In this document: positions 3,166 to 38,075 of the stretch, piece by piece
Position numbering within the stretch: the stretch's first letter is position 1
Layout: each line of letters opens with the position of its first letter
DNA from: an uncultured Candidatus Saccharibacteria bacterium
GTDB lineage: Bacteria; Patescibacteriota; Minisyncoccia; Phycocordibacterales; G965230995
Assembly: GCA_965230995.1 (NCBI GenBank)
Contig: OZ246398.1
Coordinates: forward strand, 211,768 to 275,767
Reading direction: 5' to 3'
DNA length: 64,000 bases
Translations under genes and position numbers: made by a program
Notes under the pieces: generated by a model
Database searches by the model: none
What the model was told of the DNA's origin: nothing
The model's input: only the letters and a program-made list of their open reading frames with translations

Positions 3166-3169
3166 ACAA

Positions 3170-3197
3170 AAGCCCCTTGCGGGGCTTTTGTTTTATT
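3170..3197. terminator. Bidirectional rho-independent terminator between the LamG gene (+) and yebC (-)
   Basis: aaaagcccc-ttgc-ggggctttt hairpin flanked by A and T runs. Approximate coordinates. Confidence 0.5.
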
Positions 3198-10674: not shown

Positions 10675-10767
10675 GTCTTTCTTTTTGTTTTTCAATATGG
10701 TATAAAGTTTAACTGTAATATGTTTATAACCAAGCAGGGTAGAGGATAACAATAAACATAAAAATAT

Positions 10768-10840
10768 GCGCCCATAGCTCAGTCGGTAGAGCAGTTGCCT
10801 TTTAAGCAAACGGTCGTAGGTTCGATTCCTACTGGGCGCA
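10768..10840 (+). tRNA. tRNA-Lys (anticodon UUU)
   Basis: Folded by hand: acceptor GCGCCCA/TGGGCGC, D-arm GCTC-AGTCGGTA-GAGC, anticodon loop CTTTTAA, T-arm GTAGG-TTCGATT-CCTAC, discriminator A. No encoded CCA. Confidence 0.85.
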
Positions 10841-10841
10841 C

Positions 10842-10872
10842 AAAATTAAAAGCCGAAAGGCTTTTTAATTTT
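10842..10872 (+). terminator. Long hairpin (about 13-bp stem, GAAA loop) plus T-run directly 3' of tRNA-Lys
   Basis: aaaattaaaagcc-gaaa-ggctttttaatttt. Confidence 0.4.
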
Positions 10873-11009
10873 GTGCGCCCAAGCAAGTCCGGGGGACTTG
10901 CGTGTAGGAATCGAAGCCCGATTGAGTATAATTACGAGTCCGTTTAGGACGAAGTAATTATCCAATCGGGGTACTGACCCTGTAAGGGTCGATTCCTCCT
11001 CTGCGCACA
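10873..11009 (+). repeat. A-type tRNA-linked structured element. Its 5' arm is the complement of the tRNA-Lys 3' end, followed by a conserved nested-stem core, then a near-copy of the tRNA-Lys 3' end.
   Basis: 5' part GTGCGCCCA-(hairpin)-GTGTAGGAATCGAA is the reverse complement of the tRNA 3' end. Core GAAGCCCGATTGAG..ATAATTACGAGTCCGTTTAGGACGAAGTAATTATCCAATCGGGGTACTGA is shared with 26868..27042 and partly with 30112..30271. 3' end GGGTCGATTCCTCCTCTGCGCACA resembles the tRNA-Lys 3' end. Confidence 0.5.
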
Positions 11010-11066
11010 TCGCAACAATAGAAAAACACCTCTGATTTTCAAGGTGTTTTTCTTTTGCGATGTGCG

Positions 11067-11231
11067 AGCCGGACTGAAGCGGAGCGGAGGGAGGCGGGGT
11101 CGCGACTTCGTCTTGAGTTCACGAAAGACGAAAGTTGTGACCACAAAATTAATAACAAAAGGTACACTGTCCATGTAATGGAAGATTCCTACTGCTGAAC
11201 TTTTTTAAGTGACCCCGTAAGGCTCGATTCC
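11067..11231 (+). repeat. B-type G-rich module plus two further degenerate tRNA-Lys T-arm/3' copies
   Basis: GCCGGACTGAAGCGGAGCGGAGGGAGGCGGGGTCGCGA motif shared with 27090..27316 and 25391..25514. Partial tRNA 3' copies GATTCCTACTG (about 11184) and GGCTCGATTCC (about 11221). Confidence 0.4.
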
Positions 11232-11235
11232 TTTT

Positions 11236-11670
11236 TTGACTTTTAATAAAAAATATTGCAACATTATACCGTCATCGGTTTTTAAAGCTGTTGACCTCGG
11301 TGGTATTGTGCCACTGAGAACTGTACCTTTGAGGTGTTTTATGGCTTTGCTTTGTGATGAAACTGGGAAAGACATTCGTTTTGGAGGTGTTCTCATGGCA
11401 GCTAAGCGCCGTGAGGAAACCACCTACTACGCACTGAGTGGCGAGGCGATCAATCGAATTCCGGTGTCCGAACGGCGCAATACCCCATGCCGTAAGGGGG
11501 AGTTGGGCGTGGACATCTATGAAGCAAGTTCCTCCTGCGGCTACAACGGAAGCTATACCCTGAGCGACTTTACTATGGGGGAGTTCAGCTTCTCCATCTC
11601 GAGACAGGTCGCCCAGAAGTACTTGCCGAATCACTACTCGCACTACCCGCCGGCTCAACGCAGGTCGTGA
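11236..11670 (+). CDS. Hypothetical protein in a GC-rich, apparently foreign segment. The likely true start is the internal ATG near 11395 (MAAKRREETTYYALSGE...).
   Basis: Clear switch to GC-rich, GC3-rich codons from about 11290. Long ORFs on both strands, as expected for GC-rich DNA. Function unknown. Confidence 0.3.
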   Translation: MTFNKKYCNIIPSSVFKAVDLGGIVPLRTVPLRCFMALLCDETGKDIRFGGVLMAAKRREETTYYALSGEAINRIPVSERRNTPCRKGELGVDIYEASSSCGYNGSYTLSDFTMGEFSFSISRQVAQKYLPNHYSHYPPAQRRS

Positions 11671-14443: not shown

Positions 14444-14595
14444 ATTTTGATGCTAGCAAAAAAGGCCAGATAAAGCCATTGTGATTTTGTTTAGTATAAA
14501 TAGTTGACATAGCCTAGATAAAGGCGTATAATATATAGAGATAGTCAAAAGCACCTTTAAATAAGGATTTGCGAAAAATCTCAAACACAGATCAA

Positions 14596-14653
14596 GTAGC
14601 CACAGCTTTTTGTGTCTAATGTCCAAAATATGGACACAAAAAGCTGTGGCTAC
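14596..14653. promoter_or_regulatory. Perfect 21-bp inverted repeat with a 16-nt spacer, in the divergent region between fpg and a GC-rich ORF
   Basis: GTAGCCACAGCTTTTTGTGTC ... GACACAAAAAGCTGTGGCTAC. The spacer holds a second small palindrome, TGTCCA..TGGACA. Confidence 0.4.
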
Positions 14654-14715
14654 CATGTCGGTAGGCCAAGCGTAACATGCTATCCACAAGATAGCGCAAC
14701 ATAGGGGTAACCCTT

Positions 14716-21440: not shown

Positions 21441-21562
21441 TTTTTCTGAGTATTTTTTCTGAATACCTATGTTGCTATGCCTGAATATGTTGGTATCAAG
21501 TTCTTGTTGGGGTACGCGAGATTTGAATCCACAGGGACGTCCTTTTTAGGTTCTGTATAGTG

Positions 21563-21649
21563 CGGAGGAGGTGAGATTCGAACTCACGGGACCGTTTCCA
21601 GCCCTCCTGTTTTCAAGACAGGTGCAATCGACCTCTCTGCCACTCCTCC
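21563..21649 (-). tRNA. tRNA-Ser (anticodon UGA), long variable arm
   Basis: Reverse-complement folds to GGAGGAG-UG-GCAG..., anticodon stem CCUGU/ACAGG, loop CUUGAAA, long variable arm, T-arm GUGAG-UUCGAAU-CUCAC, discriminator G. Confidence 0.8.
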
Positions 21650-24941: not shown

Positions 24942-25265
24942 ATGGATATTGGAAACATATACAGAAAAATAAAAGACGTTGGCAAAATAAAAAAGCTTGG
25001 CCCTTCTTTTAATCCAGAGAGAGATTGGAAAATTATTTTTGTCATAGCAGTTTTGTTTTTTGTTGCCCAGGTTGCATTCAACGGATATATTTTCTGGAGT
25101 GTAAAAGAGGGAAACATATTCAACAGTCAAACAAAAATAGAAGATCATATACCAGAAATACTCGTTAAACAGCTTGAAAAAAACATCTCTTTCTTTGAAA
25201 GTAAAAAAATACGTTTTGACCAAATTAAACAAGATGGTTTAAAAACAGTTGACCCAGCGAGATAA
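24942..25265 (+). CDS. Small membrane protein, possibly a PilP-like component
   Basis: Single TM. Position after pilMNO. Confidence 0.3.
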   Translation: MDIGNIYRKIKDVGKIKKLGPSFNPERDWKIIFVIAVLFFVAQVAFNGYIFWSVKEGNIFNSQTKIEDHIPEILVKQLEKNISFFESKKIRFDQIKQDGLKTVDPAR

Positions 25266-25300
25266 TCTGTATATTCTATTTGCATACCATAGTGGTATAT

Positions 25301-25372
25301 CCTCTCGTAGTTCAATGGATAGAACTGCGGACTTCTAAGCCGTCAATGTTGGTTCGATTCCAACCGAGAGGA
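25301..25372 (+). tRNA. tRNA-Arg (anticodon UCU)
   Basis: Acceptor CCUCUCG/CGAGAGG, anticodon loop CUUCUAA, T-arm GUUGG-UUCGAUU-CCAAC, discriminator A. Confidence 0.8.
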
Positions 25373-25390
25373 CAATTGCGAAGCAATTTT

Positions 25391-25514
25391 ACGAACAGGT
25401 TGGAATCGAACCGTAGGAGGGGGTCGGGGAACCTGGGGTTTCCCGTGGAGGAAGGATTGGGAAAACCGTGGGTTTCCCAGGAGTTCGAAGCGAAGCGTCC
25501 AACCGAGAGGACAA
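25391..25514 (+). repeat. tRNA-Arg-linked element. 5' arm GGTTGGAATCGAACC is the complement of the tRNA-Arg T-arm. G-rich core related to the B-type module. 3' end copies the last 17 nt of tRNA-Arg.
   Basis: GTAGGAGGGGGTCGGGGAACC matches the GAGG.GGGGTCG.G motif. GAAGCGAAGCG repeat. TCCAACCGAGAGGACAA is identical to the tRNA 3' end. Preceded by hairpin CAATTGCGAAGCAATTTT. Confidence 0.4.
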
Positions 25515-25553
25515 AATTTTTGCCTATAAAACACAAAAGTATATAATCTCTGT

Positions 25554-26687
25554 ATGAACAGGATTTTTAAGAGGCTTTTGTGGGGAAGGAGAAAAGCAGA
25601 CTCTCTCGTGACTGTTTCCATATCTAAAAAAAATATTCTTCACAATCTTTCAGAATTTCAGAAACTGAGTGGTTCTGTTGCTCCGGTTCTAAAGAGCAAT
25701 GCCTATGGACATGGAATTTTGCAGGTGGCACAAATACTAGAAAACTCGAGTGTTCCTTTTTTTGTTGTTGATTCATATTACGAAGCTCATACTCTGAGAT
25801 ATAACGACATACAAAAACCGCTTTTGGTAATTGGTTACACATCAAAAAAAGTAATGGTAGAAAATCGTTTCAAAGAGATTTCTTTTATGGTTACTAGCCT
25901 AGAATCATTGAAAGAACTTTCTGATTTGAAAAAAAATATTTCCATACATTTGAAAATAGATACTGGTATGAATAGACAGGGAATATTGCCTTCGGAATTA
26001 AACGAAGCACTTTCGTTTATTTCATCAAACAGCCAGATATCTCTATTGGGAGTAGCTACACATTTTGCAGATGCCGACAATGAAGATAAAAAATATTCTT
26101 TGGAACAAATATCAATCTGGAATAAATGCGTAGAAATTGTAAAAGGAAAATTTCCTGAAATAAAATATATACACATATCAAATACGGCTGGCCACGCGTA
26201 TATAAACAAAGCCATATCAAATGTATCGAGGCTTGGTATTGGATTATATGGAATAAAAACAGGTGGACCGATTGACGATATGGTTTCTTTGAAGCCTGCG
26301 ATGAAAGTAAAGACAATAATTACAGGAATAAAAAATATTTCAAAAGGTTCTCGTGTTGGATATTCTGGAACTTTTGTTGCTCAGAAAGAAATGAAAATTG
26401 CTACTATACCTTTTGGATATTTCGAAGGTATGGATAGGAGGCTTTCTAATAAAGGCTATGTAAAAATAGGGGATAGTTTTTCAAAAATTGTCGGTAGAGT
26501 GAGTATGAACATTGCAACAATCGACGTTACGTCAAAAAAAGACATAAAGATCGGAGATGAAGTTTTGCTCATAAGCGATAATTCAAATGATAAAAACAGC
26601 ATAGAAAATATTGCCAGGCTGTGTTCGACGATTCCGTATGAGATTTCAGTCCACATTGAGAGAAGTCTAAAAAGAGAAGTTGTTTAA
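25554..26687 (+). CDS. alr: Alanine racemase
   Basis: PLP-lysine motif VAPVLKSNAYGHG. 377 aa. Confidence 0.85.
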   Translation: MNRIFKRLLWGRRKADSLVTVSISKKNILHNLSEFQKLSGSVAPVLKSNAYGHGILQVAQILENSSVPFFVVDSYYEAHTLRYNDIQKPLLVIGYTSKKVMVENRFKEISFMVTSLESLKELSDLKKNISIHLKIDTGMNRQGILPSELNEALSFISSNSQISLLGVATHFADADNEDKKYSLEQISIWNKCVEIVKGKFPEIKYIHISNTAGHAYINKAISNVSRLGIGLYGIKTGGPIDDMVSLKPAMKVKTIITGIKNISKGSRVGYSGTFVAQKEMKIATIPFGYFEGMDRRLSNKGYVKIGDSFSKIVGRVSMNIATIDVTSKKDIKIGDEVLLISDNSNDKNSIENIARLCSTIPYEISVHIERSLKREVV

Positions 26688-26736
26688 TCTATGTTGAAAA
26701 AAAATAATATTCATATATACTAGCCATATCGTTTAA

Positions 26737-26809
26737 GGGCGATTAGCTCAGTTGGTAGAGCAACCCGTTTACACCGGGAAGGTCATAGGTTCGAGTCCTG
26801 TATCGCCCA
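26737..26809 (+). tRNA. tRNA-Val (anticodon UAC)
   Basis: Acceptor GGGCGAT/ATCGCCC, anticodon loop TTTACAC, T-arm ATAGG-TTCGAGT-CCTGT, discriminator A. Confidence 0.85.
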
Positions 26810-26867
26810 CAGAAAGTAGTATAGAAAGATTATGTTCTACAATTTAGATAGAAATCTATTTTGAAAT

Positions 26868-27042
26868 CCTAGAAAGCTCCTGGGGAGCTTTCGTCCAGGA
26901 CTCGAAGCCCGATTGAGCGACATTGTTTGATTTATCAGACAAGAAGTACTCTTGTGGTGCATAATTACGAGTCCGTTTAGGACGAAGTAATTATCTAATC
27001 GGGGTACTGAACATGTAATGTTCGAGTCCTGTATCGCCCACA
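26868..27042 (+). repeat. A-type tRNA-linked element (tRNA-Val copy)
   Basis: Hairpin GAAAGCTCC-TGG-GGAGCTTTC. CAGGACTCGAA is the complement of the tRNA-Val T-loop and T-stem. The conserved core is identical to the tRNA-Lys copy over ATAATTACGAGTCCGTTTAGGACGAAGTAATTATC. The last 22 nt, TTCGAGTCCTGTATCGCCCACA, are identical to the tRNA-Val 3' end. Confidence 0.5.
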
Positions 27043-27089
27043 ATTACAAAATCCACCCACAAGGGTGTGATTTTGTTTGTGGGCGATAC

Positions 27090-27316
27090 ATGGCGAGAAG
27101 GCCGGAACCGCACGGAGCGAAGCGGAGTCTGAATTCTTTTTTGCTAAAAAGAATTCAGAAGTGAGGCGGGGTCGCGAACACTTAGTCCGCGCAATATTAC
27201 GAAGTAATATGAGCAGACTTAGTGATTCGTGACCGAGTCCTGGAACATATCGAGCGAACGAGCTTTTTATGAGCCCTTAGACGAAGTAAAAAACCACGAG
27301 AGTGACCGAGTCCCTT
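27090..27316 (+). repeat. B-type G-rich module with an inserted 14-bp-stem hairpin and two degenerate T-arm copies (GTGACCGAGTCC twice)
   Basis: GCCGGAACCGCACGGAGCGAAGCGGAG ... GAGGCGGGGTCGCGA is shared with 11067..11231. Confidence 0.4.
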
Positions 27317-27359
27317 TCTTTGAAGTGCTTGTTTATTTTTGTTATGTTATCATCTTATT

Positions 27360-28307
27360 ATGGATAAATTACCTGTATCGTTAGTCGGTCTTAAACATTC
27401 CTTTGGTGAAAGAACTGTTCAGAATCATGAAATTGAAGAAAAATATGGTTTACCACCCGGTTGGATTTTAGGTAAAACTGGTAAAGAACAAGGTCATGCT
27501 TGGGACAATGGACCAGAGGCACCAGTGGAAGCTTCTGTTAATTGTCTTAATTTATTATTGGAACAGACAGGGATTAAAAAAAAGGATATAAAGGCAATTT
27601 TTGGAACAACTAATCCAATTACTATTGATGGGGTAACAGATGAAATTTCCTTAACAAAGAAATTTGCTATTAAAGCTGGGTTTCCGGAAGATGTACATAT
27701 TTCAGATGAAGGCTTTGGTTGTGGCGGAGCGGCCGTCGGAGTTGACTCTATGTGTTCATGGTTACGTGATCAACCCGTTGGAACCTATGCTGTTTACGTA
27801 ACACAGGATTGGTCAACAAAAATGGTAAAAGATCGTAATGTTGAAGCTCTTTTTTCTGATGCGATAAGTGTTTCAATCTGGACAAACGGAGAAAGTGGCA
27901 CAATGGAAGTTGTAGATGTCTTTTCTGCTACATCAACAATAGCCGACAGCGCTTTAGGTATAGTCGGAGGATTCTGGGAAATGGATGGAAAAGAGGTTAG
28001 TAAGGCAGCTTCAGAAGTGCCAGCATTGGTGGCAGAAAAATTAGGCATAGAACTAAAAAATTATAATATTGTACCCCATCAACCAAATGCTAAACTTCTC
28101 GAGACAATTGAAAGATTGTATGGAATAGAAGTATATAAAGAAGTGGCAAGGGAACACGGTAATCCGACCTGTTCCGGTGCGTTTATTGCTTTAGAGAGAG
28201 CTTTAGAAAAAGACAGCAAGTTTATTGATACAGAGAAAGATATACTTGTTATGCCTTTTGGTGCGGGGGGTGTTGGTGGTTTTATTCTAAGAAGAAAAAA
28301 TAAATAG
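27360..28307 (+). CDS. Thiolase-fold condensing enzyme, 3-oxoacyl-ACP synthase III (FabH)-like
   Basis: Overall FabH-like pattern and a GFGCGGAAVG segment. Start chosen at MDKLPVSL. Confidence 0.45.
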   Translation: MDKLPVSLVGLKHSFGERTVQNHEIEEKYGLPPGWILGKTGKEQGHAWDNGPEAPVEASVNCLNLLLEQTGIKKKDIKAIFGTTNPITIDGVTDEISLTKKFAIKAGFPEDVHISDEGFGCGGAAVGVDSMCSWLRDQPVGTYAVYVTQDWSTKMVKDRNVEALFSDAISVSIWTNGESGTMEVVDVFSATSTIADSALGIVGGFWEMDGKEVSKAASEVPALVAEKLGIELKNYNIVPHQPNAKLLETIERLYGIEVYKEVAREHGNPTCSGAFIALERALEKDSKFIDTEKDILVMPFGAGGVGGFILRRKNK

Positions 28308-28313
28308 TATTTT

Positions 28314-28724
28314 TTGAACTATAATTTGAAGATTAATAATAAGTTTAAAGTAAAAAAAATGGAACAAACAAATCAAGAAAATTCATCTCCAGTATCACCT
28401 CAAAACAATATTAATGAACCAAAATTAAATATAATACTACCAGCTGTTCTGGCTTACATTTTATTTTTCCTACCTTTGTTTTTTAGAAGTGAAGTAAAGA
28501 ATCATCCTTTTGTTAAATTTCATACAAAGCAAGGTTTTATCCTTTTTGTTTTTAGTCTAATTGTTTCTATACTCGGCTATGTACCTACTGTAAGTGGCTT
28601 TGTTTGGATATTGTCGCTTGCAAACTTTGTGCTATTTATCATCGGAGTACTGAATGTATTTGGAAAAAAAGAAAAAGAATTACCTGTTATCGGTCAGTTT
28701 GCAAAAGAGATAAATTTTCTCTAG
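28314..28724 (+). CDS. Small integral membrane protein (DUF4870-like)
   Basis: Two or three TM helices. Start may be the internal Met at about 28359. Confidence 0.4.
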   Translation: MNYNLKINNKFKVKKMEQTNQENSSPVSPQNNINEPKLNIILPAVLAYILFFLPLFFRSEVKNHPFVKFHTKQGFILFVFSLIVSILGYVPTVSGFVWILSLANFVLFIIGVLNVFGKKEKELPVIGQFAKEINFL

Positions 28725-28771
28725 TTGCGTCTTGGCTATAAATCCCCAGAGTCTTGTGCTAGAGTACCAAT

Positions 28772-29506
28772 ATGGAAAGGATTCCAGAGATTGAAATTTT
28801 GTATGAAGATAAAGATTTTATCGCGATAAACAAACCAGCCGGTTTGATTGTTCACGCTGATGGAAAAACAAAAGAACCAGCTGTTACTGATTGGATAATT
28901 GCTAATTATCCGGAAATAGTTTCTGTAGGTGAGCCGATAAAAACAGAAAAAGGCCAAATAGAAAGACCGGGAATAGTGCACAGGATAGACAGAGAAACAT
29001 CTGGTGTGCTTGTGATTGCAAAAAACAAAGAAGCCTTTAATTTCTTGAAAGACAAATTTAAAAATAGAGAAGTTTCAAAAGTATACAGAGCTTTTGTTTT
29101 TGGTGTACCAAAAAACTCACGCGGAGTAATAGAAAGAGATATTCAAAGAAGCAAAAGTGACTTTAGAAAATGGACTGCGTATTCTGGAAGGGGAACACAA
29201 AGACCAGCCATAACACATTATCGTGTTCTTTCCAGCATACCGGGTATGTCATATATAGAAGCAAGACCAAAAACGGGCAGGACACATCAAATAAGAGTCC
29301 ATCTTTCCTCGATAGGACACCCAATAATCGGCGATGTTTTGTATGGTAGCAGGGTTAAAGATAACTTAGGCTTTGAGAGAACGGCTCTGCACGCAATGTC
29401 TGTAAGTTTTACTGACAGAAACGGTAGAGAAATAGAGATAAAAGCCCCTTTGCCAGACGATTTTATCAAAGCAGAACAAGTCTTTAAAAATATTGCCAAA
29501 AACTAG
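28772..29506 (+). CDS. RluA-family pseudouridine synthase
   Basis: ILYEDKDFIAINKPAGLIVH and the catalytic HRIDRETSGVLVIAK motif. Confidence 0.8.
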   Translation: MERIPEIEILYEDKDFIAINKPAGLIVHADGKTKEPAVTDWIIANYPEIVSVGEPIKTEKGQIERPGIVHRIDRETSGVLVIAKNKEAFNFLKDKFKNREVSKVYRAFVFGVPKNSRGVIERDIQRSKSDFRKWTAYSGRGTQRPAITHYRVLSSIPGMSYIEARPKTGRTHQIRVHLSSIGHPIIGDVLYGSRVKDNLGFERTALHAMSVSFTDRNGREIEIKAPLPDDFIKAEQVFKNIAKN

Positions 29507-29531
29507 GACGTGTGCTAGATTACTACCTGTT

Positions 29532-29951
29532 ATGAAAACCGCTGTAAAAATATCCCCAGTTGATATAGAAGCACGAAAAAAGCTCAACATCAGAGCGGGG
29601 GACACTGTAAAGGTGTATCAAAAAATTCAAGAAAAAGACAAAACTCGAATTCAGATATTTGAAGGTCTTGTTCTTGCTGTAAAGCACGGAAAAGAAGCCG
29701 GTGGAACATTCACTGTTCGAAAGATTGCAAGCGGAGTGGGTGTAGAAAAAATATATCCAATCTATTCTCCAAATATTGATAAGATAGAAATCACAAAGAG
29801 ATCAAAAGTTAGACAATCAAAACTCTATCACATCAGAGAAAAGGCAGCTAAAGCCATAAAGAGAGAGATGAGAAATGTTAGAGAAATAAAAGAAGAGGTT
29901 AATCCAGAAGTCAAAACAGAAACAGAAGCTAAAAAAGAAGAAACAAAATAA
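29532..29951 (+). CDS. rplS: 50S ribosomal protein L19 with a Lys/Glu-rich C-terminal extension
   Basis: GDTVKVYQKIQEKDKTRIQIFEGLVLA...FTVRKIASGVGVEKIYP is L19. Track start trimmed to the internal Met. Confidence 0.85.
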   Translation: MKTAVKISPVDIEARKKLNIRAGDTVKVYQKIQEKDKTRIQIFEGLVLAVKHGKEAGGTFTVRKIASGVGVEKIYPIYSPNIDKIEITKRSKVRQSKLYHIREKAAKAIKREMRNVREIKEEVNPEVKTETEAKKEETK

Positions 29952-30029
29952 TCCAAAACGCCCGGCTTACGCCGGGCGTTTTGCTTGAAAAACATTTTTT
30001 ATTTCTGTATAGTCAAAGACGTAGAAAAT

Positions 30030-30111
30030 GCCCAGGTGGTGAAATTGGTATACACGTATCCTTGAGGTGGATATGCCGTAAGGTGTGGAGGTTCAAGTCC
30101 TCTCCTGGGCA
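30030..30111 (+). tRNA. tRNA-Leu (anticodon GAG), long variable arm
   Basis: Acceptor GCCCAGG/CCTGGGC, anticodon loop TTGAGGT, variable arm, T-arm GGAGG-TTCAAGT-CCTCT, discriminator A. Confidence 0.8.
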
Positions 30112-30271
30112 CAAACGAATGAAATGAGTATGGGCACAGGAGGTCCAGCTCTTTTGTCTTAAAAGAGCGTTGGACGGATTTGAAGCTGTTGTGAGATAGA
30201 TTGCGAGGAACGAAGCAATATATCCACAACGGGTACTGAACATGTAATGTTCAAGTCCTCTCCTGGGCACA
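30112..30271 (+). repeat. A-type tRNA-linked element (tRNA-Leu copy) with covarying stems
   Basis: GGGTACTGAACATGTAATGT is identical to the tRNA-Val copy. 3' end TTCAAGTCCTCTCCTGGGCACA is identical to the tRNA-Leu 3' end over 22 nt. Core stem A is CTGTTGTG/CACAACGG where the others have CCCGATTG/CAATCGGG. Core stem B is TAGATTGC/GCAATATA where the others have ATAATTAC/GTAATTAT. Confidence 0.5.
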
Positions 30272-30359
30272 GACGAAAGATATACTTAATAATAAGTGTC
30301 ATTTGCTATTTATGGTTTTTTTGTGTTATAAATAGCTAGTTCTGCAAATGCAGACGTAT

Positions 30360-30432
30360 GGTGCCTATAGTGTAATGGTTAGCACAAGAGTTTGTGGAAC
30401 TCTTAGTTCGGGTTCAAATCCCGATAGGCACC
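30360..30432 (+). tRNA. tRNA-His (anticodon GUG) with a genomically encoded G-1
   Basis: G-1 followed by acceptor GUGCCUA/UAGGCAC, D-arm GUGU-AAUGGUUA-GCAC, anticodon loop UUGUGGA, discriminator C. Confidence 0.85.
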
Positions 30433-31763
30433 CAAGATGAAATGGAACTGTATAAAACATATATAGTTAAAAGAAAGAATTACCCTTTGTATTCCTTATA
30501 ATATTTTAATGTGCTGGATTAAATGATATTATTTGTTATATGGAAAATCTAAATCAAACACAAAGTCATGTTGGTACTACTAGATTAATAAGTAGGACAC
30601 AACTGATAAGTACTATTACTTTTTTTTCAATTTCTGTTTTGTTAGGAATAATAGTTTATATAAAAGAACCTCGTGCTCTCGATTTGCTCGGATTTTATGC
30701 TTTCGGTCTTTTTATCCACGCTGTTGCCTTTTTTCTTTCGGTTTATCTAAGGCCAAAAATCAATTCAACAAGATATTTATTGGGCCATGTTTTTGCATAT
30801 TTATCGCTGTTGTTTGCGATTCTGAATGCGTTGATTATTTTAAGTGATGATGAGTATGCCGGTTTTGCATTCATTTTGACATTGCCCGCACTTGGCATTG
30901 CTGTATTCATATCAATCATGTTTTTATTAATTGGTATGATTGGTAGAAAAACAAATAGTGACCAATTCGTTTCGACCAGCGGTGATCTAGATAATCCTAA
31001 TCAGACAGGAATTAAGACAAAAATAGGCATTATAATTAAAAAAATTTTTATCTCAATTGGTGCTATTGTAATTGCAATATTAATTTCTATCCCTTCAGCC
31101 GTTTTTGTCGGCATGCTTTTGGATGGCAGATCAGTGCGTGAGGCTTTAAATATTAGCTTAGGCGTCTATGGTTTTAACGTAAAATTTCCATTTATATGGA
31201 CAGATCGTATGATTGAGCATGATAACGTTAAAATTGAATTTAAAACTCCCGGTGGTAGTAGGGACTATTATTCTCCGAGCGGTGGTAATTATGATAAGTA
31301 CGGTTGGTATAAGATATACATATATAGCGATGGATTTGGCGGAGATGATTTTAATTTTGATCTAAATATTGGCGATGATGATAGGTACATAAAAACTTGC
31401 AAAATATGTTATGAGGGTTATGTATCAGGGGATAAGGTAATATACACCAAAACAAAAGATAGTTATTCTGATGATGATTACTCTTATTATAATAAATACA
31501 ATTTTCTTTTAAGTTTTAGATATAACGAAAAAAACTATCATCTTTCTTTTAGATATTCTGATATTAATTCTAGATACAAAGAAACTTTTTACTCAGAAGA
31601 AGAAATGACAGATATATTTGAAAGAGTTATGGATTCTATAAAAATTAGTTCATAGGCCAGATTATATTTTGTCGGCTAAAAATGTATTTGTTTGAGGTTT
31701 AATTTCGGACACCGAGTTTGTGGAACTCTTAGTTCGGGTTCAAATCCCGATAGGCACCCAAAA
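30389..31763 (+). mobile_element. Integrated island of about 1.3 kb in the tRNA-His 3' end, bounded by 48-bp direct repeats of the tRNA-His 3' two-thirds. Single cargo ORF, no integrase.
   Basis: GAGTTTGTGGAACTCTTAGTTCGGGTTCAAATCCCGATAGGCACCCAA occurs at about 30389..30436 (within the tRNA) and again at about 31715..31763. Confidence 0.45.
30540..31655 (+). CDS. Hypothetical multi-pass membrane protein with a Tyr/Asn/Asp-rich C-terminal region
   Basis: Four to six TM helices, then YSDDDYSYYNKYNFLLSFRYNEKNYHLSFRYSD-type low-complexity repeats. It is the cargo of the tRNA-His island. Confidence 0.5.
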   Translation: MENLNQTQSHVGTTRLISRTQLISTITFFSISVLLGIIVYIKEPRALDLLGFYAFGLFIHAVAFFLSVYLRPKINSTRYLLGHVFAYLSLLFAILNALIILSDDEYAGFAFILTLPALGIAVFISIMFLLIGMIGRKTNSDQFVSTSGDLDNPNQTGIKTKIGIIIKKIFISIGAIVIAILISIPSAVFVGMLLDGRSVREALNISLGVYGFNVKFPFIWTDRMIEHDNVKIEFKTPGGSRDYYSPSGGNYDKYGWYKIYIYSDGFGGDDFNFDLNIGDDDRYIKTCKICYEGYVSGDKVIYTKTKDSYSDDDYSYYNKYNFLLSFRYNEKNYHLSFRYSDINSRYKETFYSEEEMTDIFERVMDSIKISS

Positions 31764-31782
31764 ACAATGAGGACAAAACAAG

Positions 31783-32046
31783 ATGATGGCCAAGGACAAT
31801 AGACCCTTCAAAGAAAAAGTTTTTGAAATTGTTTCAAAAATAAAAAGAGGGGAGACGATGACTTACAAACAAGTTGCAATTTTGGCTGGCAGACCAAAAG
31901 CCTTTAGAGCTGTTGGAAATATTCTAAATAAAAATTACGATCCAAAAATTCCTTGTCATCGGGTAATCCGAAGCGACGGAAAGACAGGGGGATATAACAG
32001 GGGAGCTAGTCAAAAAGCTAAAATACTTGTATCTGAAAAACTTTGA
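31783..32046 (+). CDS. MGMT-family DNA-binding domain protein (O6-alkylguanine-DNA alkyltransferase C-terminal domain-like)
   Basis: PCHRVI active-site-type motif inside a helix-turn-helix. Confidence 0.65.
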   Translation: MMAKDNRPFKEKVFEIVSKIKRGETMTYKQVAILAGRPKAFRAVGNILNKNYDPKIPCHRVIRSDGKTGGYNRGASQKAKILVSEKL

Positions 32047-34312: not shown

Positions 34313-34341
34313 ATTGACATACCCCCGTAGGGTATATATAA
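34313..34341 (+). promoter_or_regulatory. Sigma70-type promoter (TTGACA-17-TATAAT) with a CsoR-type operator palindrome ATACCCCCGTAGGGTAT in the spacer
   Basis: Read directly from the sequence. Same layout repeated before copA and the following gene. Confidence 0.55.
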
Positions 34342-34348
34342 TTAGGGG

Positions 34349-34621
34349 ATGAAAAAACAAGCTGATGAAAAAGCAAAGATTGTTCGCAGACTTTCTATAA
34401 TAGAAGGGCAGGTGAGAGGTCTCAAAGAAATGATTGAAAACGGCACATATTGTATTGATGTTATTACTCAAACATCAGCAGTAAAGCAAGCACTGTCAAA
34501 TGTTGAAGATATGCTTCTGGAACAACATCTCGGTTCTTGTGTCTTGGGACAGGTAAAAGACGGCAAAGTAGGCAAGGCGACAGAAGAAATCCTCAAGGTC
34601 TATAAATTAAAGAGAAAGTAG
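34349..34621 (+). CDS. csoR: CsoR/RcnR-family copper-sensing transcriptional repressor
   Basis: 90-aa all-helical protein. C..H..C metal-ligand spacing (YCIDV...H...C) of the DUF156 family. Confidence 0.75.
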   Translation: MKKQADEKAKIVRRLSIIEGQVRGLKEMIENGTYCIDVITQTSAVKQALSNVEDMLLEQHLGSCVLGQVKDGKVGKATEEILKVYKLKRK

Positions 34622-34632
34622 TTTTTTGTTTC

Positions 34633-34665
34633 TTGACCTATACCCCCTAGGGGGTATAGAATGGG
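34633..34665 (+). promoter_or_regulatory. Promoter TTGACC-17-TAGAAT with a perfect CsoR-type palindrome TATACCCCCTAGGGGGTATA in the spacer
   Basis: Read directly from the sequence. Confidence 0.5.
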
Positions 34666-34668
34666 GAT

Positions 34669-36987
34669 ATGGAAAAAACAAAAGCAAAAAACATTTATCC
34701 AATTGTCGGTATGCATTGCGCCTCTTGCGCCGGCATTATCGAAGAAACTTTAAAAGAGGAAAAAGGGGTGAGCGGTGTTTCGGTAAACTTTGGCACTGAA
34801 AAAGCTGTTATTGTTTTTGATGAAAAACAAACAAATATAAAAACTCTTTCAAAGAGTATAGAAAAATTAGGCTATACAATTACTGACACAAAAGAAAATC
34901 TTTCTGCATCGGAAATGGGAATGAGTGAAGAACTCCATAGGGAACACAGCGGTATCGGACAATCAAAAGAACAAAAACTCGAAGAACTTTCTTCTATGAA
35001 AAAGATGCTTTTTTCTGCTATACCAATTGCAATATTTAGTGTCATTGTAATGGTTTGGGAAATATCATCAGAGTATGGTTTCTTACCAAAAATGAATGAA
35101 GTAACAGATGAATTTGTTCATCACCTTTTGCCTATGTTTGCTACATACATGCTTCTTGTGGTTGGTAAACCTTATCTTTTGGGGTTGTTTAGATTCATAA
35201 AATACGGCAAGGCAAATATGGATACTTTGATTGGGCTCGGCACTAGCGTTGCTTTTATTTACAGCTTTGCGATTTCGGCCTTTGGTACTTTGCTTGCGCC
35301 ATATATCAATGTTGAATATCAATACTACGACGTCACCGTCGTTGTTATTGCTTTTATTACTCTTGGAAAATATTTGGAAGCAAGATCAAAAATCAAAACA
35401 GGTGACGCAATAGAAAAATTATTAGGTCTACAAGTAAAAACTGCAATTGTCATTCGCGATGGAAAAGAAACAGAATTACCAGTCAGTGAAGTCGTGCATG
35501 GTGACAGTGTAATCATCAAACCAGGAGGAAAGATTCCCGTTGACGGAATCGTGCTTTCCGGGAATTCTTTTGTGGATGAATCAATGATTACGGGCGAACC
35601 AATGCCAGTCTCAAAAAAGCAAGGCGACAATGTGACTGCCGGAACTCTAAACACAAACGGCACTTTCACTTTTAAAGCAACGAAAATAGGGGAAGAAACA
35701 TTGCTTGCGGAAATAATCAGAATGGTAGAGGAAGCACAAGGAAGCAAAGCTCCAATTCAAGCCTTGGCCGACAAAATATCAAGTATTTTTGTGCCAATAG
35801 TTTTGGCAATCGCTGTTGTTGCTCTGGGTTCGTGGCTAATTATCGGTTCACAATATCTGGGTTTTTCACAAGCGCTTTCTTTTGGGCTAGTTTCTTTTGT
35901 CGGTGTTTTGGTTATTGCTTGTCCTTGTGCACTAGGACTTGCAACACCCACAGCAATTATTGTCGGTGTAGGCAAGGGCGCTCGCGAAGGAATTTTAATC
36001 AAGGACGCTGGGACTTTGGAGACTTTGCACAAAGTTAATACTGTAGTGGTTGATAAAACAGGGACAATAACTGAAGGTAAACCAACATTGTCTGATGTTA
36101 AAAATTATTCCGAAAAAAGCGATGAGGAATTTATCTCTCTGCTTGCATCTCTTGAAAATAATTCAGAACACCCCATTGCTCGCGCGATAACCTCTACTGT
36201 AAACGAGAGGAAGGGAATTGCTTTGAGTGAGGTCGCAGATTTCAAAGCAATTGAAGGTAAGGGAATACAGGGTTTTATAAAAAATGAAATGTATTATGCC
36301 GGTAGTCCAAAATTTATTTTAGAGCTCGGGTTATCTATTAATGAACAAGAAATAAACATATTTACAAAGCAAGGCAAAACGCCAGCGTTGCTTGCAACAA
36401 AAAACAAAGTATTAGGACTTGTGACGGTTTCCGATAAAATAAAAGACGCTTCAAAGCAAGCTGTCTCTGATTTGCACAAACTCGGTATAAAAGTCGTGAT
36501 GCTCACCGGTGACAATGAAAAAACCGCGCGATACATAGCAGAGCAAGTCGGTATAGATAATGTAATTGCAAATGTTATGCCGACAGAAAAACTTTTTCAT
36601 ATAGAAAAATTACAATCAGATGGCAGTGTTGTGGCTATGGCAGGGGATGGAGTAAACGACGCACCAGCACTAGCAAAAGCAGATGTCGGTATCGCAATGG
36701 GAACGGGGACAGATGTTGCAATAGAATCAGCAGGTATTACTTTACTTGCTGGTGATATTTCAAAATTAGTTAAAGCCGTGAGACTCTCAAAGATGACAAT
36801 GCGAGGAATAAAACAAAATTTATTCTGGGCTTTTGCGTATAACGTAATAGGAATACCTCTTGCAACAGGAATCTTTTATCCGATATTTGGCTGGGTGCTC
36901 AGCCCTGTATTCGCAGGTTTTGCAATGGCACTTTCAAGTGTGTCAGTAGTCGGCAATTCGTTAAGAATAAAAGGGAAGAGATTATAA
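34669..36987 (+). CDS. copA: Copper-translocating P-type ATPase
   Basis: N-terminal [15 protein letters not shown] ion-channel motif, DKTGTIT phosphorylation site, GDGVNDAP. Confidence 0.9.
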
Positions 36988-36989
36988 TT

Positions 36990-37018
36990 TTGACTTGATA
37001 CCCCACGGGGGTATAGAA
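36990..37018 (+). promoter_or_regulatory. Promoter TTGACT-17-TAGAAT with CsoR-type palindrome ATACCCCACGGGGGTAT in the spacer
   Basis: Read directly from the sequence. Confidence 0.5.
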
Positions 37019-37019
37019 T

Positions 37020-38075
37020 ATGAATATGACACAAAAAGTAGAGAATAGTGGTAACCAAACAAAAAAATATCTTTTTCACGTAGAAGGAATGCATTGTAAA
37101 TCTTGCGTCCTTCTCACAGAATCAAAAGTTGGTAGTCAAAGTGGTGTAAGGGAAGTGCGCGCCAATCTCCACAAGCAAACAATAGAAATAATGGGTGATT
37201 TTGGAGAAAAGACAGATTTAGAAATTGCTAATTATCTTTCACAAAGCATAGAGCCAAACGGCTACAAAATTGTTCTAGAAAAAACAGAGGGACAAAAAAA
37301 GAACAATGAATTTATTATTGCAGTACCAATTGCGGTTGCTTTTATTGGACTATTTATCGCTCTTCAGAAAATGGGGATTGTTAATCTTGTGGATGCAAGT
37401 TCAGTTTCTTTTGGTACTGCTTTTGTAATAGGAATTGTTGCTTCACTTTCTACTTGCATGGCTGTCGTTGGCGGTCTTGTTTTGTCTATGTCGGCAGTGT
37501 TTGCAAAGGAGGGAAGTAAGGCCCGCCCACATATTTATTTTCATCTATCTAGGCTGGTCACTTTCTTTTTGCTTGGTGGCGTGATCGGTCTTGTTGGTAA
37601 ATCATTTGCCCTTAATACGGTTTCTACTTTTGTCCTTGGTTTGGCTGTGGGATTGGTTATACTTGTTATGGGTCTCAACTTGCTCGACCTTAAATTTGCA
37701 AAAAGATTTTCCGTCAGTATGCCAAAGAGATTAGGAAAGATTACACACGGTATGACAACCATAAACCATTCTGCTGTGCTAATGATTGCTGGACTTGCGA
37801 CTTTCTTTTTGCCTTGCGGGTTTACACAGTCAATGCAAATCTATACTCTTTCTGTTGGTGGTTTTATCCCCGGCGCTTTGACTATGTTTGCTTTTGCTCT
37901 TGGTACATTGCCAGTTTTGGCTCTGATAAGTTTTGGATCATTTGAGGTGAGAAAATTATCTTGGCGAGGAATATTTTTCAAGACTGCTGGCATAATAGTT
38001 ATCGCTTTCGCATTGTTCAATATTATAAACAGTGCTGTTGTAATCGGCATCATCCCGCCAATATTTAATTTTTAA
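37020..38075 (+). CDS. HMA-domain membrane protein, putative metal transporter or thiol-disulfide transporter-like (DsbD/CcdA-like TM core)
   Basis: N-terminal HMA GMHCKSC. About six TM helices with conserved Cys (STCMAV, FLPCGF). Confidence 0.4.
   Translation: MNMTQKVENSGNQTKKYLFHVEGMHCKSCVLLTESKVGSQSGVREVRANLHKQTIEIMGDFGEKTDLEIANYLSQSIEPNGYKIVLEKTEGQKKNNEFIIAVPIAVAFIGLFIALQKMGIVNLVDASSVSFGTAFVIGIVASLSTCMAVVGGLVLSMSAVFAKEGSKARPHIYFHLSRLVTFFLLGGVIGLVGKSFALNTVSTFVLGLAVGLVILVMGLNLLDLKFAKRFSVSMPKRLGKITHGMTTINHSAVLMIAGLATFFLPCGFTQSMQIYTLSVGGFIPGALTMFAFALGTLPVLALISFGSFEVRKLSWRGIFFKTAGIIVIAFALFNIINSAVVIGIIPPIFNF

Follow-up and report, generated by a model that had tools for sequence, protein, structure and literature searches.

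A single-stranded fold on the tRNA-sense strand, maintained by selection, is supported for the 159-nt element (30113-30271) lying directly 3' of tRNA-Leu in the window, the 64-kb stretch of DNA analysed here. With a probability of roughly 40%, we read it as a non-autonomous, tRNA-gene-associated element with an RNA fold under selection; its membership of a large undescribed family of small (~130-230 nt), protein-less elements of the Patescibacteria is proposed just as tentatively.

The element behind tRNA-Leu and the other units of the window

A unit is built of three consecutive stem-loops: SL-I, SL-II (hairpin 1) and SL-III (a three-way junction). SL-I is a long terminator-type hairpin. An acceptor 3' strand, which in the first unit belongs to the tRNA itself, makes up its 5' arm together with the discriminator, and the antisense of this its 3' arm. 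The helix closing SL-III, P1, pairs an antisense with a sense copy of T-loop positions 55-60 and the T-stem 3' strand. Of the two arms of SL-III, the long one, P2, consists of stem A, stem B and a tip with tandem GA; the short one, P3, has the loop UGUAA and passes without a linker into the sense copy. The span 30030-30271 comprises the tRNA (30030-30112), with a promoter-like TTGAAA-17-TATAGT upstream (29985-30013), and the element (30113-30271), with the following parts:

30030-30112, forward strand: intact tRNA-Leu(GAG) (ARAGORN; Rfam tRNA, 52.6 bits)
30114-30131, forward strand: spacer/tip AACGAAUGAAAUGAGUA (sequence, alignment, terminator scan)
30132-30142, forward strand: segment antisense to the acceptor/T-stem 3' strand (RNAfold)
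30143-30175, forward strand: hairpin 1 (SL-II), GUCCAGCUCUUUUG UCU UAAAAGAGCGUUGGAC (RNAfold)
30176-30181, forward strand: P1 5' strand, GGAUUU (RNAfold, alignments, model R1)
30182-30185, forward strand: junction J1/2, GAAG (alignment of 84 copies)
30186-30232, forward strand: P2 arm (RNAfold, alignments)
30233-30237, forward strand: junction J2/3, GUACU (alignment of pattern-selected copies)
30238-30252, forward strand: P3 hairpin, GAACA UGUAA UGUUC (two alignments)
30249-30271, forward strand: sense copy, downstream, of the end of the tRNA, matching 30091-30113 at 23/23 positions

The initial annotation had described the element as ending in the last 22 nt of tRNA-Leu, and the repeat is exact over 23 nt when the preceding g is counted (30249-30271 = 30091-30113); it begins one base ahead of the T-loop and runs through ACA. 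The 5' half of the element, as the initial annotation had overlooked, holds antisense copies of this segment, and they pair with the terminal sense copy: CAGGAG, within 30132-30142, pairs with CUCCUG of either sense copy in RNAfold, an acceptor pairing weaker than in most copies, and GGAUUU complements AAGUCC (30253-30258) in the T-loop/T-stem copy, with one U.G wobble. In model R1, P1 has 10 pairs and starts at 30172, the four outer pairs being poor in the Leu copy. Within the sense copy, 30253-30258 is the P1 3' strand and 30259-30271 the acceptor 3' strand plus ACA; the last P3 bases, UC, are U55 and C56 of the T-loop copy. A hairpin is found at the SL-II position in nearly all copies. The spacer at 30114-30131 is the counterpart of the SL-I cap, which elsewhere is a terminator hairpin or a GAGCGAAGCGAG mini-hairpin; the terminator scan found none there in the Leu copy, so co-transcription of the element with the tRNA is likely.

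RNAfold of the Leu element gives the stem A and stem B helices (z = -5.0). Stem A is CTGTTGTG (30186-30193)/CACAACGG (30225-30232), where the Lys and Val copies have CCCGATTG/CAATCGGG, exactly as initially read. Stem B had been read as TAGATTGC (30197-30204)/GCAATATA (30215-30222), against ATAATTAC/GTAATTAT in other copies; these sequences and the helix (30196-30204/30215-30223 in our delimitation) are confirmed, but the helix contains one G.A mismatch (G30199/A30220). The P2 internal loop is formed by AG (30194-30195) opposite C30224, and where the other copies form an inner GTCC/GGAC stem the Leu copy indeed has a loop, GAGGAACGAA (30205-30214), which retains the GAG...CGAA tandem-GA motif.

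Units are carried by 4/7 tRNAs in the window, and covariance model R1 matches exactly three copies there, after tRNA-Lys, tRNA-Val and tRNA-Leu. The units behind the other tRNAs are:

10842-11009, forward strand: family-1 unit after tRNA-Lys (10768-10841) (model R1, 83 bits; fold)
11010-11235, forward strand: older/degenerate units of the tRNA-Lys array (sequence comparison)
25374-25514, forward strand: unit of a third core type in the same frame, after tRNA-Arg(UCU) (weak fold, z = -1.6)
26811-27042, forward strand: family-1 unit after tRNA-Val (26737-26810) (model R1, 65.6 bits; fold)
27043-27318, forward strand: family-2 unit(s) of the tRNA-Val array (fold, z = -7.1)

SL-I of the Lys unit (10834-10880) includes the tRNA acceptor 3' strand, with the antisense TGTGCGCCCA at 10872-10881, and is followed by hairpin 1 (10883-10901), the P1 5' strand (10904-10915), the core (10903-11002) and a sense copy (10989-11009) differing from the tRNA at 3 positions. 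The Val unit has hairpin 1 at 26871-26894, the P1 5' strand at 26895-26906, an extra insertion of ~43 nt in the core (26919-26960) and an exact 23-nt sense copy (27020-27042). It shares GGGTACTGAACATGTAATGT with the Leu copy, and these two occurrences (27002-27021 and 30231-30250; 0 expected by chance) are the only ones, in agreement with the initial annotation. The Lys array continues with a family-2-type core (GAAGCGGAGCGGAGGGAGGCGGGGUCGCGA...GUGACC) that bears a family-1-like 3' module (11162-11193), and then a remnant (11205-11235). In the Val array, the antisense TGTGGGCGATACA belongs to an SL-I, the core reads GAGCGAAGCGGAG...GAGGCGGGGUCGCGA-hairpin-GUGACC, and the sense copies, GAGUCCUGG and GAGUCCC, are truncated. 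The Arg unit combines the antisense GGUUGGAAUCGAACC (25393-25407) with a 16-nt sense copy, UCCAACCGAGAGGACA (25499-25514). A tRNA-His repeat of 48 nt flanks 1.3 kb in the window.

Covariation, folding strand and the conserved junction

Copies were aligned with MAFFT (84) and to the model (118); the alignment behind the covariation has a mean column identity of 65% and draws on many taxa, not on a handful of recent clonal copies. In the 118 model-aligned copies 88% of cells pair, compared to 66% when shuffled, and 30/32 pairs show double substitutions. Stem A is 96-97% paired, with 6-8 of its 8 pairs changed on both sides across the two alignments; stem B covaries at 9/9 pairs; P3 is 98.8-99.5% paired, with 3-4 covarying pairs and an invariant pentaloop, UGUAA. 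The covariation score is 0.49-0.54 against 0.16 for shuffled alignments (0/500 reach it), and slid partners give at most 0.15. The earlier claim of selection on secondary structure, drawn from the window copies, is thereby sustained: with more copies collected, compensatory change holds in stems A, B and P3.

Functionless scars, either attL/attR remnants of integrase insertion at tRNA genes or decayed tandem tRNA duplicates, are a scarcely credible explanation of this pattern. Integrases that target tRNA genes characteristically leave duplications of the tRNA 3' end which start in the T-loop or anticodon loop, the 48-nt tRNA-His repeat encloses its 1.3 kb, and some units of hairpin 1 plus core follow partial tRNA 5' copies; relics, however, would lose the 88% pairing, the 30/32 covarying pairs and the junction bases that are invariant from Saccharibacteria to Paceibacteria, the element is not called as a tRNA by ARAGORN or Rfam, and no integrase lies nearby, so that this explanation is largely refuted by the covariation.

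In well-aligned pairs, G:U greatly outnumbers A:C both in stem A (columns 15-19; 34 vs 2) and in P1 (columns 5-6; 35 vs 4), indicating that the tRNA-sense strand is the folding strand and favouring RNA over duplex DNA. The initial annotation had left the choice between folded RNA and ssDNA; the single-strand fold is upheld, and the G:U excess over A:C favours RNA. A folded ssDNA site for recombination, comparable to attC or CTX-phage attP(+), whose strand would rebuild the tRNA-gene 3' duplex for integration by a host tyrosine recombinase, is very unlikely. Arms that conserve structure and not sequence, a folded strand that re-forms the target duplex, and direct repeats of 16-48 nt around units (in L021, around a 1-kb gene-bearing segment) would suit it; the frequent tandem U.G/G.U pairs (21-27 copies at one stem A pair) suit RNA well and DNA poorly, the units have no associated recombinase, viral contigs carry no copies, and we know of no ssDNA replicon in these bacteria.

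Structural variants of the right-hand sense copy are inherited (many loci have a 2-nt bulge, and 9 have a 14-nt hairpin that covaries), indicating that it is part of the fold and not a plain target duplication; its acceptor part diverges ~3 times faster per site than its T part. Since these variants lie in the right-hand copy and the tRNA copy is normal, a classical integrase scar with a crossover in the T-loop is excluded; a crossover nearer position 65/66 is possible. An apparent preference of the guide for the tRNA copy over the downstream copy (15/15, gapless) was an artefact of the 2-nt-bulge variants and vanished in gapped comparison (no difference, p = 0.83). The element was also considered as a T-loop intron of a mini-tRNA and rejected: a T-loop of 7 nt is not in every case regained when the core is taken out (a U is missing in the Lys copy), and both the T-loop and the discriminator have their complement in the antisense.

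The junction holds ~20 invariant unpaired bases, its strands being GAAG, GUACU(GA) and zero nt. In J1/2 the G, A and A are invariant (84/84) and the final G nearly so (81/84); GUACU of J2/3 is invariant in the pattern-selected set, with GGUGUAC and CCUGUACAG variants elsewhere. Strong covariation combined with so many invariant unpaired bases (~20) marks a ribozyme, an aptamer or a specific protein-binding RNA, and a loop-to-internal-loop contact is possible in the modelled fold. Purine-type riboswitch aptamers and the hammerhead have a similar free-sequence closing helix P1, two hairpin arms and invariant junction nucleotides, likewise with a possible loop-to-internal-loop contact; in contrast to these three-way-junction RNAs, the unit has no Rfam match and no CUGANGA/GAAA core, is found 3' of tRNAs and not in mRNA leaders, and builds P1 from tRNA sense plus antisense. 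The loose hammerhead-like flavour noted initially was not borne out (no such core; no Rfam ribozyme family at E<=10).

A putative new small ribozyme, or an antisense effector against the cognate tRNA, is quite unlikely. As a ribozyme, the three-way junction would cleave or ligate at the linker-less P3/P1 junction, between C56 and R57 of the sense copy: the sense strand crosses the junction with zero linker in a reactive-looking geometry, GAAG, GUACU and UGUAA are invariant, the substrate helices vary in sequence and follow the target, and multicopy, repeat-associated spread is typical of self-cleaving ribozymes. Against this, no ribozyme of Rfam 15 resembles the element, the hammerhead core motifs are absent, and cleavage of an essential tRNA would be harmful. 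As an antisense effector, the element would release the cis copy, after which its bipartite arms could pair with the identical 22 nt of the tRNA or of the tRNA gene, the guide being in two parts with a hairpin between, as in H/ACA pockets and RNase P external guide sequences.

Occurrence at tRNA genes and candidate identities

The genome scan with a 16-base core pattern gave at least 99 genuine copies among the 130 pattern matches listed; among these matches, nearly all genuine copies are in Patescibacteria (CPR), at least 80 have a same-strand tRNA end 75-366 nt upstream (median ~125), and the preceding tRNAs represent at least 17 amino-acid types. Model R1 gives 133 matches in 715 kb of CPR loci. 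Adjacency and orientation to the tRNA are strict, the core fold is kept across Saccharibacteria and Paceibacteria, and at least three core types occur in one common frame. The 11 pattern matches in viral contigs are all due to chance, without complementary P3 arms and without the core, and a phage origin was rejected on these grounds.

At the Rfam 15 gathering score only tRNAs pass in the window; sub-threshold searches (E<=10) gave no relevant match in 10700-11300 and 25200-31900, nor in 8 related loci, and the literature searched holds no description of a tRNA-trailing element with arms tailored to the neighbouring tRNA. As no described RNA family matches the element, it probably represents a new RNA linked to tRNAs, either mobile or regulatory. 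Several identities were tried and rejected: a known ribozyme, intron or tmRNA (none by Rfam at gathering or E<=10); a tRNA gene or pseudogene (not called by ARAGORN or RF00005; only acceptor-like and T-stem-like helices, with the T-loop paired); a group I intron in the tRNA (the upstream tRNA is complete, with no RF00028 match); a MITE or REPIN (the inverted arms vary with each tRNA, and neighbour clustering gave no partner gene); and a TIGR array (no 36-nt periodicity, units of 130-230 nt, no Nop-domain gene neighbour). A conserved ~200-nt region upstream of copy 2 in L079 is found also in L092 (3' end GGTTCGrGCAAAGGyTArTATCTCACCGC); it was suspected to be a tmRNA and has no Rfam match.

Neighbour clustering within 2.5 kb of 93 loci revealed no recurrent recombinase, transposase or RT; the recurrent neighbours are housekeeping families (RbfA, YraN, CCA-adding enzyme, IF-2, ClpB), and a protein partner was rejected accordingly. 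The window copies likewise have housekeeping genes, and no recombinase, transposase or RT, beside them. In terms of integrase islands, a flanking direct repeat of the tRNA 3' segment is present (23-nt exact, Leu and Val), and no integrase or recombinase lies inside or adjacent (insert of 138-230 nt; 93 loci). Arrays with progressively degraded units occur at the Lys and Val loci of the window and in L021, L084, L092 and L133; repeats reach ~40-45 nt including the trailer in L079, L021 and L133. Cores are exchanged within a genome: those within L040 and within L079 are ~97% identical, with locus-specific arms and hairpin 1. In relatives with 83-85% L19 identity, units sit at the same tRNA-Leu and tRNA-Val, but stem A, hairpin 1 and the number of units are different; tRNA-His has a unit in L133 and none in L132. 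Strain-level comparison gave no empty sites: the only contig encoding an identical L19 (Logan contig L131, which ends inside tRNA-His) is identical across the compared region, and the three P0006 contigs agree except for a single-base indel, with no empty/filled pair.

tRNA-targeting integrative elements (tyrosine-integrase islands and phages, casposons at tRNA 3' ends) similarly leave the tRNA intact, accrete in tandem at one tRNA, duplicate the tRNA 3' segment from the T-loop or anticodon loop as a direct repeat, and bring a new 3' end and terminator. Unlike them, the unit is only 130-230 nt and has no integrase or casposase, adds an antisense copy, shows bulge and hairpin variants in the core-side repeat, and is under selection for a single-stranded fold with G:U pairs. 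REPIN/REP elements with RAYT, and MITEs such as Correia and ERIC, are also short, multicopy, intergenic and non-coding, with compensatory changes in their hairpins and homogenisation within a genome; the present units, in contrast, hold a strict position and orientation behind tRNA genes, have arms that are locus-specific copies of the neighbouring tRNA instead of fixed terminal repeats, and possess a conserved multi-helix junction with invariant unpaired bases and no RAYT or transposase. Group I introns of Patescibacteria tRNAs interrupt the anticodon loop, match RF00028 and are spliced (PMC13011429); they share the phylum, the tRNA-gene association and the nature of a protein-less structured RNA, whereas the unit, smaller by a factor of two to three and without a match in Rfam, lies behind a tRNA that is intact.

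Proposed propagation, tRNA-linked function and significance

SL-I forms in nearly all loci where it was compared: the tRNA acceptor 3' strand pairs with the downstream antisense in 23/25, in helices of 20-26 bp that are long perfect duplexes. About 60% of first units have a terminator-like hairpin with a U-run upstream of the core, so that transcription of the core is not assured. We consider it unlikely that the unit is a host device acting in cis on tRNA expression, as a module by which the tRNA transcript is processed, terminated or switched. In such a device the antisense would have two alternative partners, the downstream sense copy and the 3' part of the tRNA itself (SL-I), the junction would stabilise P1 in the manner of a riboswitch aptamer, and the balance of pairings would leave the tRNA 3' end free, terminated or given to a double-strand-specific nuclease. 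The (+)(-)(+) layout does offer mutually exclusive pairings, P1 closes an aptamer-like junction with ~20 invariant unpaired bases, the SL-I duplexes are long and perfect, several core types in one frame could be different sensors, and the same tRNAs carry units in related, streamlined genomes. However, only some tRNAs carry units (4/7 in the window; tRNA-His empty in L132), arrays of decaying units and tandem duplicates are unexpected for a regulator, the antisense is made only after the tRNA has been transcribed and folded, and the terminator often precedes the core.

In the preferred reading, a non-autonomous element, units abut; the T-part of a sense copy, joined to the acceptor part of the unit that follows, mimics a duplicated tRNA 3' end, so that an integrated unit resembles a circular permutation opened near tRNA position 65/66 (or 54/55). 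As the unit provides a replacement acceptor strand and a terminator, the tRNA gene stays intact. We infer that recombination through the repeated tRNA segment, carried out by host machinery or some trans-acting enzyme, is the route by which units reach tRNA genes and multiply there; they would be transcribed by read-through from the tRNA promoter, and the conserved junction may be a catalytic, ligand-binding or protein-binding module for propagation or processing of the element. Several points count against this reading: no mobilising enzyme or free (circular) form was identified, strain-level comparison gave no clean filled/empty pair, retargeting to 17 tRNA types needs joint change of the antisense and sense arms, and the terminator-like hairpin of many first units may stop transcription ahead of the core. 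Persistence at the same tRNA (relatives with 83-85% L19 identity) fits a host function equally well as a selfish element.

It is conceivable, if rather doubtful, that the antisense/sense frame works as an address that can be programmed: an RNA independent of proteins, or dependent on a host enzyme, would be a bipartite guide to the last ~22 nt of one tRNA or tRNA gene, with a new catalytic or ligand-sensing three-way junction working there. Bipartite guides (H/ACA pocket, RNase P external guide sequences, IS110 bridge RNA, TIGR tigRNA) likewise place two antisense parts around a hairpin on one contiguous ~22-nt target in a cellular RNA or gene; in H/ACA pockets and RNase P external guide sequences it is a hairpin that splits the guide. 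The unit differs in having the target copy in cis, no Cbf5/Nop, IS110 or Tas gene nearby, no ACA box rule and no 36-nt tandem array; TIGR arrays (Tas systems of CPR and phages) are tandem 36-nt dual-spacer units beside a Nop-domain protein gene (PMC12045711). If true, the programmable address would place the unit among RNA-guided mobile elements, ribozymes specific for a tRNA, or riboswitches governing a tRNA and not an mRNA, with interchangeable core types across the candidate phyla radiation.

Units cause assembly breaks (as where L131 ends in tRNA-His) and apparent tRNA fragments, and could confuse tRNA and att-site annotation in CPR genomes. Patescibacteria have tiny genomes under strong deletion pressure, in spite of which many of their tRNA genes carry one or more units. 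If mobile, the family would be a protein-less element with a new use of tRNA genes as safe landing sites; if a host device, it would add a further layer of tRNA maturation or control in Patescibacteria, which lack many standard RNA-processing enzymes.

Copies in the window and anatomy of the unit

The window holds seven tRNA genes, and a covariance model built from 84 copies matched exactly three elements in it (83, 80 and 36-66 bits), located after tRNA-Lys, tRNA-Leu and tRNA-Val:

30030-30112: tRNA-Leu(GAG)
30113-30271: Leu copy, 159 non-coding nt directly after tRNA-Leu(GAG)
30249-30271: last 23 nt of the Leu copy, exact repeat of the tRNA 3' end at 30091-30113
26811-27042: Val copy, with GGGTACTGAACATGTAATGT at 27002-27021 and an exact 23-nt repeat of the tRNA-Val 3' end at 27020-27042
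10842-11009: Lys copy, after tRNA-Lys

The 20-mer GGGTACTGAACATGTAATGT, which sits just before the 23-nt repeat of the Leu copy and occurs a second time in the Val copy, had no match in shuffled sequence. The stems that the initial annotation had described for the Leu copy were found in the sequence and recovered by RNAfold in all three copies (z-scores of -5.0 for the Leu copy, -9.0 and -5.6 for the other two); stem B is present, but carries one G.A mismatch. The neighbouring genes are housekeeping genes (alanine racemase, pseudouridine synthase, L19, DNA polymerase III delta subunit), and the nearest relatives of the contig's L19 protein are Taylorbacteria- and Parcubacteria-type proteins. 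A weak match to the family-1 model (family-1 being the core of these three copies) at 14560-14663 (-), with 16.9 bits and E = 0.03 (E-values of this custom-built model are rough), has none of the junction's invariant bases and probably represents a long hairpin unrelated to the family.

The initial annotation missed that each element also carries, in its 5' half, antisense copies of this tRNA 3' segment. On either side of the GC-rich hairpin 1, the Lys copy has TGTGCGCCCA, complementary to the acceptor 3' strand, discriminator and two more bases, and GTAGGAATCGAA, complementary to the T-stem 3' strand and T-loop; the antisense is CAGGACTCGAA in the Val copy and GGATTTGAA in the Leu copy, where the pairing includes a U.G wobble. 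These segments pair with the terminal sense copy and close a three-way junction: P1; P2, a long arm made of stem A, an internal loop and stem B; and P3, a short hairpin (GANNN-UGUAA-NNNUC) whose 3' strand enters the T-loop copy without a linker. That the closing helices are sense and antisense copies of the last ~22 nt of the tRNA is firmly established. This aptamer-like junction closed by P1, and the (+)(-)(+) arrangement with its exclusive pairings, would suit a processing or switch module of the host, which we nevertheless consider unlikely.

In 23 of the 25 analysable first units, folded from the tRNA acceptor 3' strand up to the P1 antisense, the acceptor strand and discriminator pair with the downstream antisense. 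The resulting hairpin, SL-I, is long and of terminator type, often near-perfect (up to 26 bp) and capped in other loci by a GAGCGAAGCGAG mini-hairpin; hairpin 1 starts 2-4 nt after it. The natural unit is therefore composed of three stem-loops:

SL-I: acceptor 3' sense, tip, antisense
SL-II: hairpin 1
SL-III: T antisense, core, T sense

The module GAGCGAAGCGA(G/A), a GCGAAGC mini-hairpin with flanking G.A pairs, recurs at many loci of other genomes (e.g. L005, L017, L054, L111), as the SL-I cap right after tRNA ends, at the P2 arm tip and inside family-2 cores (a second core type).

Where units form arrays, each T-sense end adjoins the acceptor-sense start of the following unit, and both together look like a duplicate of the tRNA 3' end; in the Val and Lys arrays of the window, the acceptor part of the right-hand copy, seemingly divergent, finds its pairing partner in the antisense of the next unit. 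The integrated unit thus resembles a circular permutation with its opening near tRNA position 65/66, and the tRNA receives a new acceptor strand and terminator from it. The T-part on the right belongs to the fold as a built-in component. This right-hand T-part diverges per site ~3x slower than the acceptor part after it and is inherited in one of three forms: an exact one, one with 2 bulged nt following UCGAN, and one that has a covarying 14-nt hairpin at this point (9 loci). An antisense guide tracking the tRNA rather than the downstream copy was rejected, the apparent preference being an alignment artefact.

Distribution, covariation and folding strand

The family is widespread, restricted to CPR (Patescibacteria) and strictly tied to tRNA genes. 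The pattern GGGTACTGANNNTGTAANNNTC, scanned over one genome per species, gave at least 119 loci, many of them from MAGs. Among the matches listed, window included, 99 of 130 have the upstream TCGAAGC core motif, all of them in Patescibacteria or unclassified 'bacterium' MAGs (Taylor-, Lloyd-, Zambryski-, Kaiser- and Nomurabacteria, other Paceibacteria, Saccharibacteria); the listed matches in Bacteroidales, Proteobacteria and others have no core and are due to chance, and none of 11 matches in viral contigs was genuine. A same-strand tRNA ends 75-366 nt upstream (median ~125) of 80 of these 99 listed copies, with 17 amino-acid specificities (most commonly Ser 18, Arg 10, Leu 9, Val 8); the remaining 19 are mostly at contig ends or within arrays. 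The covariance model found 133 copies in 715 kb of CPR loci.

Pairing and covariation in two alignments of the family
Cells paired: MAFFT, 84 copies, 85.9% (shuffled 66.7%); model-aligned, 118 copies, 88.2% (shuffled 66.3%)
Covariation score: MAFFT 0.488 (shuffled 0.164; 0/500 reach it); model-aligned 0.543 (shuffled 0.164)
Best slid control: MAFFT 0.146; model-aligned 0.135
Pairs with both sides changed: MAFFT 26/32; model-aligned 30/32

The model-fitted alignment is biased toward structure, and the independent MAFFT alignment agrees with it. The paired fraction reaches 96-97% in stem A and 99% in P3. Inert scars are contradicted by this covariation and are very improbable. Practically no variation occurs in GAAG (final G in 81/84), GUACU and UGUAA, and very little in the internal-loop A, G and C; since the sample was seeded by one sequence pattern, this is in part a circular result for the patterned bases, and relatives located through synteny have GGUGUAC and CCUGUACAG variants.

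In well-aligned pairs, G:U greatly exceeded A:C (34 vs 2 in stem A, columns 15-19; 35 vs 4 in P1, columns 5-6), and one stem A pair, adjoining a U.G, is G.U in 21-27 copies. The folding strand is therefore the tRNA-sense strand, with an RNA-type pattern, and its single-stranded fold is firmly under selection. A folded-ssDNA attachment site, disfavoured by the same G.U pattern, is improbable. We take the UGUAA pentaloop to be consistent with a five-base T-loop motif (U1.A5), and GAG...CGAA at the P2 tip presumably with tandem sheared G.A pairs. GUAC, which is self-complementary, recurs in the loop of the hairpin that is optionally inserted, suggesting a tertiary or kissing contact.

Core diversity and variation between genomes

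The same frame is used by at least two further core types: GAGCGAAGCGGA...GAGUCGGGGUCGCGA-hairpin-GUGACC, present in the Lys and Val arrays of the window and also in L019, L021, L092 and L133; and a third one after tRNA-Arg(UCU). In L036, a family-1 core is nested within a family-2 unit; in L040 and L079, cores are near-identical within the genome and arms and hairpin 1 differ. Genomes at 83-85% L19 identity have units behind the same tRNA-Leu(GAG) and tRNA-Val(UAC), which differ in stem A, hairpin 1, bulge state and unit number and share modules mosaic-wise.

Hairpin 1 and core also occur upstream of tRNA genes, after a copy of tRNA positions 1 to ~23-50:

L042, 5525-5666: upstream-type unit
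L045, 2587-2712 (-): upstream-type unit
L103 (-): upstream-type unit, upstream of tRNA-Ser 3111-3198
L092, 341-417: upstream-type unit

Their core is family-1-like (AAGACC...GGUGUACUG...UGUAA), preceded by the first 23-50 nt of that tRNA; the context mirrors that of the 3' units, without P1 antisense.

The tRNA-His gene is bare in L132 and followed by a unit in L133; in the window it has instead a 48-nt repeat around 1.3 kb. Its 3' 48 nt (anticodon stem to end, 30388-30435) are repeated exactly 1326 bp downstream (31714-31761), enclosing one 371-aa ORF (30540-31655) without Pfam match, apparently a membrane protein on inspection; the segment looks like a small integrated islet without integrase or structured core. 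In L021 (633-1784), ~1 kb separates a tRNA-Leu 3' sense copy from a family-1 core ending in another sense copy, with an ORF that we take by eye to be DUF218/YdcF-like (801-1229) followed by one of 63 aa in a different frame (1236-1427); gene cargo can thus also lie between the repeats.

Other features were seen near tRNA genes and units. An orphan tRNA 3' fragment, GGATTCAAATCTCGCGTACCCCA (window ~21495-21535 (-)), consisting of T-loop, T-stem 3' and acceptor 3' of a different tRNA, lies just downstream of tRNA-Ser(UGA) (21562-21649), with no recognisable core between them. A conserved ~200-nt region without Rfam match lies directly upstream of units in L079 (6840-7060) and L092 (3430-3640), with common blocks (CACCACG, GAGCGTAC, ACCACGCGCnCCGCGCGTGCGAAGT) and the 3' end GGTTCGrGCAAAGGyTArTATCTCACCGC. 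The L079 unit after it keeps tRNA-Ser antisense arms and has a different flanking 3' end, TCGACTCCTGTCCCATCCACCA, in which CCA is encoded and position 70 is a U, so that a G3:U70 pair like that of tmRNA or tRNA-Ala could form. Elsewhere in the window, a promoter-like module, TTGAC...TATAGAAT, containing the GC palindrome TACCCCCTAGGGGGTA, is repeated (34313-34358, 34633-34678, 36990-37035) ahead of three genes in a row and may serve them as a common operator; and three large paralogous ORFs (940-3165, 52843-55014, 55017-57575; 741, 723 and 852 aa) have 70-86% identical DNA blocks in common and a repeated C-terminal motif (…IYNRALS..EI..LY…; five DNA copies).

Nature of the element

No Rfam family matched the element, ribozyme classes, introns, tmRNA and RNase P all included. 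The hammerhead-like flavour perceived in the initial annotation was not supported: the hammerhead core is absent and no Rfam ribozyme matches. Nothing like the element was described in the full-text literature searched, including two papers on CPR RNA elements, one on group I introns located in the anticodon loop (PMC13011429) and one on TIGR arrays (PMC12045711). A candidate new ribozyme or antisense effector, whose site of action might be the P3|P1 junction with its zero linker or else the cognate tRNA, is a still less likely reading than the host module.

Clustering all ORFs within 2.5 kb of 93 loci gave no recurrent recombinase, transposase or reverse transcriptase. The lack of a mobilising enzyme, the long residence at the same loci and the co-change of both arms across 17 tRNA types, which it leaves unexplained, speak against a non-autonomous element. 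It is favoured by the arrays and decay gradients, by nested and tandem units, by the exchange of cores and by the differences seen between relatives, and we tentatively prefer it, at a probability of roughly 0.4. Such a non-autonomous element would enter and multiply at tRNA genes through recombination across the repeated tRNA segment, and may be expressed by read-through from the tRNA promoter; at the Leu copy, a promoter-like site lies upstream of the tRNA, with no terminator in between.
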